Shown here piece by piece: positions 42,301 to 45,300 of a stretch of 45,560 bases of DNA; within the stretch, counting starts at the first letter, position 1; every line of letters starts with the position of its first letter. The DNA comes from Escherichia phage ev243. The stretch lies in sequence record NC_049955.1. One strand, given 5' to 3'. A program made the position numbers.

Positions 42301-45300
42301 TCCAGGTATCGCCACCGAATTCTGGCAGAACGTCGGTCCATGCACCAATATCGTATGCTACACCGTAGTTACGGCCATAATCGATGGAGCCGTAGTCACC
42401 GAATTTCAGGCCAGCGAAGGCAAGACGGGTTTTATCTTTGGAGGAACCTTGAGATTCAGCGCGGTTGCCTTTGAATTCATATTCCCACTGACCGAAACCA
42501 GTCAGTTGATCGTTGATTTGGGTTTCACCTTTGAAGCCAAGACGGGCATAAGTAGTATCACCATCATCTGCATCATTAGAGGAGAAGTAGTGCTTAGCAT
42601 TAACTTTCCCGTACAGATCCAGCTTGTTACTGTCTTTATTATAAATTTCAGCTGCCTGAGCAGACATCGCCATCAGTACTGATGCAGCTACAGCAGAAAT
42701 TGCCACTGTTAATTTTTTCATCGTGAGCCCTTTTTTTTGAACTATTATTAAAAAATGATGTCACTGCGCGATAAATATTCATCTAATCAATGTGATTATT
42801 TCAAGATGTAAGTTTTGGTTTCTCGTTTAATTTGTGAAGTAGATCTCTATTTTTATCTGAACTTTTTTCTATCGAATCCTATTCATGGCTCTTGGCTGAA
42901 TAAAAATAAATCTATTAGCCAATTTATATTAATGGCTGTTATTTATAAGTGCTCTATAATTTGAAGGTTCAATTTAAATTGGCTAAAAATAACGCTGGAA
43001 ATTATTTGTTGGTTATTTGTTGAGATTTGCTTATGTATTTGTAGTGGTGTTTTCAATACTCGGTAGCATTCTCGCAAATATCATTTAGTGGTTTACGTAC
43101 GTAAAAAATTGGTTATGCTGTTAAGAGTGGTTACTTCGTCACACAGCTTAAACCCGCCGTCGAGCGGGTTTTTCCATTTTTTGAGTCTCGATATTAGCTG
43201 ATAACCCAATACCTGAGTTATTCACTGACTCCGAGTCTGTTACGTTTCTGCTTTTTTGCGATACGTTGTATTCCCTCAATTTACACCCGCTTTGTCTGCG
43301 AGGTGGGGTTATGAAATCCATGGATAAGTTAACAACGGGTGTCGCCTATGGCACCTCAGCAGGTAGTGCCGGTTACTGGTTTTTACAGCTGCTCGATAAA
43401 GTCACGCCCTCACAGTGGGCAGCAATAGGTGTGCTGGGTAGCCTGGTATTTGGCCTGCTGACGTACCTGACAAACCTTTATTTCAAGATTAAAGAAGATA
43501 AGCGCAAGGCTGCGAGAGGTGAATAATGCCTCCATCATTACGAAAAGCCGTTGCTGCTGCTATTGGTGGCGGAGCAATTGCTATAGCATCAGTGTTAATC
43601 ACTGGCCCAAGTGGTAACGATGGTCTGGAAGGTGTCAGCTACATACCATACAAAGATATTGTTGGTGTATGGACTGTATGTCACGGGCATACAGGAAAAG
43701 ACATCATGCTCGGTAAAACGTATACCAAAGCAGAATGCAAAGCCCTCCTGAATAAAGACCTTGCCACGGTCGCCAGACAAATTAACCCGTACATCAAAGT
43801 CGATATACCGGAAACAATGCGCGGCGCTCTTTACTCATTCGTTTACAACGTGGGTGCTGGCAATTTCAGAACATCGACGCTTCTTCGCAAAATAAACCAG
43901 GGCGATATCAAAGGCGCATGTGATCAGCTACGTCGCTGGACATATGCTGGCGGTAAGCAATGGAAAGGTCTCATGACTCGTCGTGAGATTGAGCGTGAAA
44001 TCTGTTTGTGGGGTCAGCAATGAACAGAGTAACCGCGATTATCTCCGCTCTGGTTATCTGCATCATCGTCTGCCTGTCATGGGCTGTTAATCATTACCGT
44101 GATAACGCCATTACCTACAAAGCCCAGCGCGACAAAAATGCCAGAGAACTGAAGCTGGCGAACGCGGCAATTACTGACATGCAGATGCGTCAGCGTGATG
44201 TTGCTGCGCTCGATGCAAAATACACGAAGGAGTTAGCTGATGCGAAAGCTGAAAATGATGCTCTGCGTGATGATGTTGCCGCTGGTCGTCGTCGGTTGCA
44301 CATCAAAGCAGTCTGTCAGTCAGTGCGTGAAGCCACCACCGCCTCCGGCGTGGATAATGCAGCCTCCCCCCGACTGGCAGACACCGCTGAACGGGATTAT
44401 TTCACCCTCAGAGAGAGGCTGATCACGATGCAAAAACAACTGGAAGGAACCCAGAAGTATATTAATGAGCAGTGCAGATAGAGCTGCCCATATCGATGGG
44501 CAACTCATGCAATTATTGTGAGCAATAGACACGCGCTTCCAGCGGAGTATAAATGCCTAAAGTAATAAAACCGAGCAATCCATTTACGAATGTTTGCTGG
44601 GTTTCTGTTTTAACAACATTTTCTGCGCCGCCACAAATTTTGGCTGCATCAACAGTTTTCTCCTGTCCAATTCCCGAAACGAAGAAGTGATGGGTGATGG
44701 TTTCCTTTGGTGTTACTGCTGTCGGTTTGTTTCCAACAGTAAACGTCTGTTGAGCACATCCTGTAATAAGCATTGCCAGAGCGGCAGAAAACAACATTTT
44801 TTTCATCTTATTATCCTGCATTGTTAAAAACGGCAGAATCCTATGTGACAACAATTAAACGATAGTTAAATGGATTGATGAAAATTAAAACTATATAGGT
44901 GGATGCTCAGCCTATTGGAGGAGGGGGGCACTCAGAATCCTGTGGAATGAAATAAACCGCTCTTTCTGTCCATTACCCTTTTAGCTGCGCTGTATCGTCG
45001 CCGTATTCCCGCATTAACCATGACCGTAGCCCGACGGGGAATTCCTTCTGCGTGAGTGTGCGGGAATAATCAAAAACGATGCACACCGGGTTTTACTGTG
45101 CTGACAGACGCAGGGTTACCCTCATAGTCGCTTTTCCGGTGCGATGGTGGAAGAAACCGGGATGTTCATCCATCATCACTTTGGATTGATGTATATGCTC
45201 TCTTTTCTGACGTTAGTCTCCGACGGCAGGCTTCAATGACCCAGGCTGAGAAATTCCCAGACCCTTTTTGCTCAAGAGCGATGTTAATTTGTTCAATCAT

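Follow-up and report, generated by a model that had tools for sequence, protein, structure and literature searches.

A predicted pinholin, signal-arrest-release endolysin and spanin cassette of phage 21/DLP12 type in the lambda-like Escherichia phage ev243

Lysis cassette of ev243

Which kind of lysis machinery accompanies a lambda-type virion in Escherichia phage ev243 is the question raised by the right arm of its genome (NC_049955.1), analysed here as one window of 45,560 nucleotides. This window is the whole phage genome opened at cos, beginning with GGGCGGCGACC and ending with CCGACAGGTTACG as in lambda. An initial annotation, made by reading the sequence, had proposed a dual-start pinholin and a signal-arrest-release (SAR) endolysin following the S21/R21 paradigm of phage 21, at positions 43311-44023. 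The holin gene S and the endolysin gene R occupy this interval base for base, but the cassette runs on through the spanin genes Rz/Rz1 (44020..44481), an embedded two-component third part that was absent from that annotation. Overall, S-R-Rz/Rz1 almost certainly makes up a complete lysis cassette of the phage 21/DLP12 type, intact for all three steps, in a temperate phage that resembles lambda. What the sequence demonstrates is the set of genes, their order and overlaps, their motifs, and how their products are identical or nearly identical to characterised proteins. Its type is already known in full, is very common in E. coli, and holds no surprise for a specialist.

Phage 21 and DLP12 are among the closest relatives of the cassette, and each matches different parts of it. 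Phage 21 (OL657228, CPT_21_66 to _70) shares the gene order, the overlaps TAATG and ATGA, and the M1/M4 dual start with K2. Its R (165/165) and Rz1 (60/60) are identical to those of ev243, as is the DNA of positions 43592-44152, and Rz is nearly so (150/153), while the holin S21-71 agrees at just 61 of 71 positions. The essD-rrrD(ybcS)-rzpD/rzoD genes of DLP12, found also in phage 434B (OL657227), encode a holin identical to S (71/71), and the antiterminator Q and R agree at 126/127 and 163/165 positions, respectively. Compared with DLP12, the R, Rz N-terminus and Rz1 of ev243 carry phage 21/lambda alleles (M98 and I159 in R; P34 in Rz1). The S21/R21 assignment therefore held for the endolysin, which is R21 itself, and for the family of the holin, but the holin allele is that of DLP12/EssD and not S21. 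Nor is ev243 phage 21 itself or one of its lambda hybrids, since the holin allele is different.

Holin gene S

The open reading frame (ORF) of S (43311..43526, + strand, stop codon TAA at 43524-43526) matched the Pfam family PF04971 'Bacteriophage P21 holin S' far beyond chance (E = 2e-35, 121 bits for a cutoff of 26), as well as PHROG holin families (E = 1e-37 and 2e-33). Among the NCBIfam models, no match was found for S, Rz or Rz1. The ORF opens with MKSM, and its ATGs at 43311 and 43320 are codons 1 and 4, in agreement with the two starts three codons apart that had been noted earlier. Initiation at Met1 would give the antipinholin form S71 (MKSM..., 71 residues, 43311..43526, +) with an extra N-terminal Lys2, as indicated by the ORF, PF04971, PHROG and identity to the 434B 'antiholin'. 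The second in-frame ATG would give the active pinholin S68 (MDKLTT..., 68 residues from Met4, 43320..43526, +), to which a nested coding sequence 'holin class II' corresponds in phage 21 and 434B; both labels, 'antiholin' and 'holin class II', were given by the 434B depositors to the identical allele (OL657227). S21 is a dual-start class II holin in which S68 is the holin and S71 the antiholin, the extra N-terminal positive charge altering its topology (PMC9636201). S is predicted to share this dual start, with a Met4 holin and a Met1 antiholin bearing the additional positive charge.

Two transmembrane domains (TMDs), also reported in the initial annotation, were recovered as uncharged stretches by hydropathy analysis. 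TMD1 (approximately residues 7-28) had a mean Kyte-Doolittle value of 0.70 and consisted of Gly, Ala, Ser or Thr at 55%, and TMD2 (approximately residues 31-58) had a mean of 1.15 and was followed by a charged C-terminal tail. The hydrophobicity of TMD1 is weak, staying below a Kyte-Doolittle value of 1.0 in a 15-residue window; by analogy with S21, whose TMD1 is releasable, this would be the expected property and no defect. By composition, S thus appears to possess the two segments and the weakly hydrophobic, Gly/Ala/Ser/Thr-rich TMD1 of S21-type holins.

S differs from S21 at 10 positions only (7, 8, 11, 27, 30, 32, 47, 49, 61 and 64). M1, K2, M4, D5, K6 and all Gly and Ser residues of both TMDs are unchanged, including G40, S44 and G48, which we take to be the small-residue face of TMD2. 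The substitutions convert the aromatic patch YWFLQW into YWFLQL (W27L) and the loop LDQVSPSQ into LDKVTPSQ (including Q30K). In one study, the aromatic patch YWFLQW was found to stabilise S21 pores (bioRxiv 10.1101/2021.04.20.440580). Phage 434B, in which the lysis region of the cryptic K-12 prophage DLP12 has taken the place of its own, was grown as a clear-plaque phage (PMC9119081); because its holin protein is identical to S, the EssD-type allele is evidently functional.

Endolysin R

R (43526..44023, +) encodes a SAR endolysin of 165 residues, a GH24 or T4-lysozyme-like muramidase, and its start overlaps the stop codon of S by one base (TAATG), its own stop codon TGA being at 44021-44023. 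It matched the Pfam family PF00959 'Phage lysozyme' (E = 1.3e-45), and the NCBIfam models that it matched, all of them below threshold, were unrelated endolysin equivalogs. The protein is identical over 165/165 residues to both the genome copy of R21 and the PDB entry 3HDE (chain of 165 residues), over residues 27-165 to 3HDF (chain of 140 residues), and at 163/165 positions to 4ZPU, 'Lysozyme RrrD' (DLP12 RrrD). The T4-lysozyme-like fold on which the initial annotation had staked its proposal is thus present. The catalytic triad E35, D44 and T50 is the single match to the E-x8-D-x5-T spacing, and the SAR segment at residues 8-27 is exactly the Gly/Ala-rich peptide quoted in that annotation. 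It lies within an uncharged stretch (residues 8-31, 62% Gly/Ala/Ser/Thr) with R6 and K7 ahead of it. A GH24 domain with its triad, together with a weakly hydrophobic N-terminal segment preceded by basic residues, points to a SAR endolysin.

The first SAR endolysin, P1 Lyz (PDB 1XJT/1XJU), has a GH24 fold and an N-terminal SAR segment like R, with weak but significant similarity (E = 3e-8). Xu and colleagues are said to have found in 2005 that it is activated by disulfide isomerisation, with a cysteine in the SAR segment. The cysteines of R are at positions 52, 71, 132 and 160, and its SAR segment has none, so R would follow the refolding mode of R21, unlike P1 Lyz. In that mode, reportedly described by Sun and colleagues in 2009, refolding makes the SAR segment part of the enzyme body.

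Export of R21 by Sec leaves its N-terminal signal uncleaved, and the protein stays tethered to the membrane and inactive until collapse of the proton-motive force by the holin frees and activates it (PMC6116005, PMC12642591). We give almost no credence to a different pairing, in which S would be a canonical large-hole holin and the R N-terminus a cleavable signal peptide, with timing independent of a tethered enzyme released by depolarisation. An A-I-A/S motif at residues 19-22 of R superficially fits the -3/-1 rule of signal peptidase I, and the 10 holin substitutions leave hole size extrapolated. The motif, however, sits midway along the hydrophobic core instead of in a polar c-region following it, and the PDB entry of the same sequence contains all 165 residues. 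Moreover, R is R21, which is reported to retain its N-terminal signal after Sec export, unprocessed by signal peptidase (PMC6116005). On the holin side, S21 fails to complement lambda S and cannot replace it (PMC9636201), and TMD2 of S keeps all the small-residue positions.

The pinholin and SAR endolysin reading also sets ev243 apart from lambda at the level of these two genes. The lambda S105/S107 - R - Rz/Rz1 cassette has the same position before bor and cos and the same dual-start holin/antiholin logic. Lambda S, however, is a three-TMD, large-hole class I holin and lambda R a cytoplasmic transglycosylase without a SAR segment, both unlike their ev243 counterparts, and BLASTP comparison of S and R with lambda S and R gave no match.

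Spanins Rz and Rz1

In Gram-negative hosts, the third step of lysis falls to a spanin pair. Rz, the i-spanin (44020..44481, +; 153 residues), matched PF03245 (E = 2.6e-54) and PHROG 13 'Rz-like spanin' (E = 1e-79), and its ATG overlaps the stop codon of R (ATGA). It has an N-terminal transmembrane anchor (residues 4-24), a periplasmic coiled-coil region, and cysteines at positions 99 and 152. Rz1, the o-spanin (44240..44422, +; PF06085, E = 2.9e-20), is a proline-rich outer-membrane lipoprotein precursor of 60 residues encoded wholly within Rz in another reading frame, with the lipobox VVGC, Cys20 and a further Cys29. Beyond the agreement with phage 21 given above, Rz is identical to lambda Rz at 152/153 positions and Rz1 to lambda Rz1 at 59/60. 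With a TMD in the i-spanin and a nested o-spanin lipoprotein gene, the pair is predicted to be an embedded spanin of the lambda type.

Start region of S and upstream signals

The translation-initiation region of the holin (43286..43308, +) contains a purine-rich Shine-Dalgarno (SD) tract, GAGGTGGGG, at 43300-43308, which would serve both starts. In the centroid structure, a predicted 9-bp hairpin (43286-43294 paired with 43299-43307) occludes GAGGTGGGG; the minimum free energy of the 46-nt start region was -14 kcal/mol, and 12 of 200 shuffled sequences folded equally well. Phage 21 has an SD-occluding hairpin in the same place, but a different one, the upstream sequences being unrelated. The analogy is suggestive of a hairpin that might regulate the dual start as in lambda and phage 21.

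This region also bears on whether the dual start operates at all. That a single start codon is in use, with no antiholin and with MKSM inherited but silent in this allele, is very unlikely. It would draw on the sequence upstream of the S ATG, which shows no homology with phage 21 before position 43310, so that the start-site ratio of S21 is not directly transferable to S. The extended GAGGTGGGG tract, however, is within reach of both ATGs, and on the identical DLP12 sequence in 434B the Young and Casjens groups have marked both products and, at the matching bases, a ribosome-binding site for each of S71 and S68. Furthermore, M1-K2-S3-M4 is common to the S21 and EssD alleles despite differences at 51 of 216 nt.

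Farther upstream, approximately 140 nt before S on the coding strand, a consensus scan detected an intrinsic-terminator-like hairpin with a T-run (43150..43181, +; hairpin 43150..43171, AAACCCGC...GCGGGTTT), with an 8-bp stem containing 5 G-C pairs and the tail TTCCATTTTT. A Q-modified late transcript would need to read through it, and it may keep transcription unmodified by Q from reaching the lethal lysis genes. The late promoter is assumed, as in other lambdoid phages, to sit just downstream of Q, in which case the late transcript would cross the porin gene between Q and S antisense. In phage 21, by contrast, pR', a terminator, tRNA-Asn and tRNA-Thr (3592..3747) directly precede S; positions 42722..43310 of ev243 are unrelated to this segment, and an antisense porin gene takes its place. 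No tRNA gene was detected in the window with ARAGORN, and the Rfam scan gave no match in the lysis region, its sole match being the lambda cIII thermoregulator. The DLP12 lysis operon is under the control of a Q-type antiterminator, RpoE and Hha (PMC7918800).

Proposed lysis mechanism

The functional steps proposed for ev243 are all carried over from what has been published on S21, R21 and lambda Rz/Rz1. Late in infection, Q-antiterminated transcription would reach S-R-Rz/Rz1, and S would be translated from its two starts into the pinholin S68 (Met4) and into S71 (Met1), whose extra Lys2 would slow the exit of TMD1 from the membrane and make it an antiholin. Both forms, with two transmembrane helices each, would build up in the inner membrane to a set concentration, whereupon the weakly hydrophobic TMD1 would exit the bilayer and TMD2 would oligomerise into many heptameric pinholes of nanometre scale, collapsing the proton-motive force. 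Meanwhile, R would be exported by Sec and wait, inactive and tethered by its uncleaved Gly/Ala-rich SAR segment. Depolarisation would free it into the periplasm, where it would refold into an active muramidase (E35/D44/T50) and degrade the murein, after which the Rz/Rz1 complex would disrupt the outer membrane.

In S21, TMD1 exits the membrane and TMD2 assembles into heptameric channels of ~2 nm, with collapse of the proton-motive force (PMC9636201, bioRxiv 10.1101/2021.04.20.440580, PMC7278021), and dinitrophenol (DNP) triggers S21 prematurely (PMC9239132). Disruption of the outer membrane by spanins is a later lysis step (PMC12642591). Heptameric holes of ~2 nm, triggering by energy poisons and the lack of soluble-endolysin release are thus documented for S21 and would extend to S.

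Several points weigh against this model, although nothing found contradicts it. Its functional steps rest on homologues and not on ev243 itself, and the use of both S start codons is a prediction. The SD hairpins of ev243 and phage 21 are indistinguishable from shuffled sequence (Z-scores from -0.8 to -1.9), and the consensus scan for a late promoter (pR') between Q and S on the + strand yielded no convincing candidate. In addition, S differs from the dissected S21 at 10/71 positions, including W27L and, in the inter-TMD loop, Q30K, so that hole size and timing are extrapolated for this allele.

We consider it unlikely, if conceivable, that the combination of an EssD-type S with an R21-identical R sets a lysis clock measurably unlike that of phage 21, and that the intact antisense porin gene and the hairpin between Q and S add a control of the lysis genes lacking in phage 21 and lambda. 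Either effect, if true, would leave the kind of system unchanged.

Mosaic structure and genomic context

The lambda-type virion stated in the initial annotation was borne out by the left arm, where the region from lambda nu1 through J is 97.6% identical to lambda over bases 1-11491 and 95.4% over 11724-18014. On the right arm, lambda homology restarts exactly at the start of Rz (44020) and continues through bor, and the DNA homology with phage 21 starts at 43310, one base before the start of S. Site-by-site comparison showed that S differs from phage 21 at 51 of 216 nt but from DLP12/434B at 3 nt, whereas positions 43592 to 44152 are identical to phage 21 and show scattered differences from DLP12. 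Since S is of the DLP12 type while 43592-44152 matches phage 21, a recombination joint lies near the S/R boundary (43505..43690), besides the module boundaries at the starts of S and Rz. Phage ev243 is therefore another clean lambdoid mosaic, combining a lambda virion module with a non-lambda S-R segment whose exchange points coincide with the S start and the R/Rz junction.

The Q-porin-S stretch is of the DLP12 type, and R and Rz/Rz1 are of the phage 21/lambda type. Q, the late-gene antiterminator (41067..41450, +; PF06530, E = 1e-53), belongs to the DLP12 QuuD type; besides its near-identity to the 434B/DLP12 antiterminator, it is ~30% identical to phage 21 Q and showed no similarity to lambda Q. 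Between Q and S lies a porin gene of the OmpC/NmpC/Lc type (41639..42721, -; 360 residues; PF00267, E = 4e-152). The layout of Q, antisense porin (nmpC type) and S is the same in DLP12/434B, but IS5 interrupts the porin gene there, whereas that of ev243 is intact. Several hairpins were also observed after the porin stop codon (41484..41625), and the Q-porin layout is the DLP12/PA-2 arrangement.

This kinship raises the possibility that the cassette has been domesticated or is decaying, like that of cryptic DLP12, whose lysis genes are proposed to serve cell-wall maintenance and vesicle production instead of phage release. The DLP12-type Q-porin-S stretch and the EssD holin would fit such a role, and host-physiology phenotypes have been reported for the DLP12 lysis genes (PMC7918800). 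It is nevertheless extremely unlikely. DLP12 is a remnant, whereas the ev243 window is a complete genome from cos to cos, in which the lambda-like structural arm is intact and an integrase, replication genes and an immunity region are present. None of the four lysis ORFs is disrupted and their native overlaps are kept, the plaque-forming phage 434B uses the identical holin protein, and phages such as ev207, 2G7b and PhiR34_1, whose records were deposited as complete genomes, carry cassettes that are 99.4-99.8% identical. A cassette for phage release remains the preferred reading.

Distribution of the cassette

The 1.3-kb cassette was 99.4-99.8% identical in phages ev207, PhiR34_1, PhiR68_2, Turner and 2G7b, and ~95% identical in more than 20 wild isolates named 'Lambda_...'. 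The S-R segment matched 4338 of 5426 complete E. coli genomes (~80%); 1001 of the matching records did so at 99% identity or more, several of them at 100%, with the annotations essD and rrrD. Because the cassette is so frequent in phages and genomes, a lambda-like virion with S21-type lysis genes is routine, and because the S-R segment is present in ~80% of complete E. coli genomes, its DNA is a poor marker for any particular phage. The proper annotation of the four genes is pinholin/antipinholin, SAR endolysin, i-spanin and o-spanin, and the result has little importance beyond that.

Other genes in the genome

Together with the porin, three further genes bring the outer-membrane proteins of ev243 to four: Lom/Ail (19086..19685, +; PF06316, E = 1e-122), an omptin/OmpT-like protease (25469..26422, -; PF01278, E = 3e-130) and the Bor lipoprotein (44513..44806, -; PF06291, E = 6e-31). 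These three are 'moron' genes. The b-region (22584..25282, -) encodes two proteins not found in lambda, an alpha/beta-hydrolase of 493 residues (PF00561, E = 3e-33) whose C-terminal domain is TAP-like, and an S-adenosylmethionine (SAM)-dependent methyltransferase of 221 residues.

At the left end of the window (1..20), ev243 reads GGGCGGCGACCGCGGG where lambda reads GGGCGGCGACCTCGCGGG. The two differing bases fall at, or immediately behind, the cohesive end of 12 nt, and they might reflect either a genuine variant of cos or an artefact of the way in which the deposited sequence was opened. The cIII thermoregulator RNA lies at 31615..31673 (-; Rfam RF01804, 88.5 bits), and the immunity region (32679..36090) is of the lambda type, with SieB, RexB, RexA and a cI-like repressor. 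The nin region includes genes for a Dam-family methyltransferase (39171..39758) and RusA (40482..40844).

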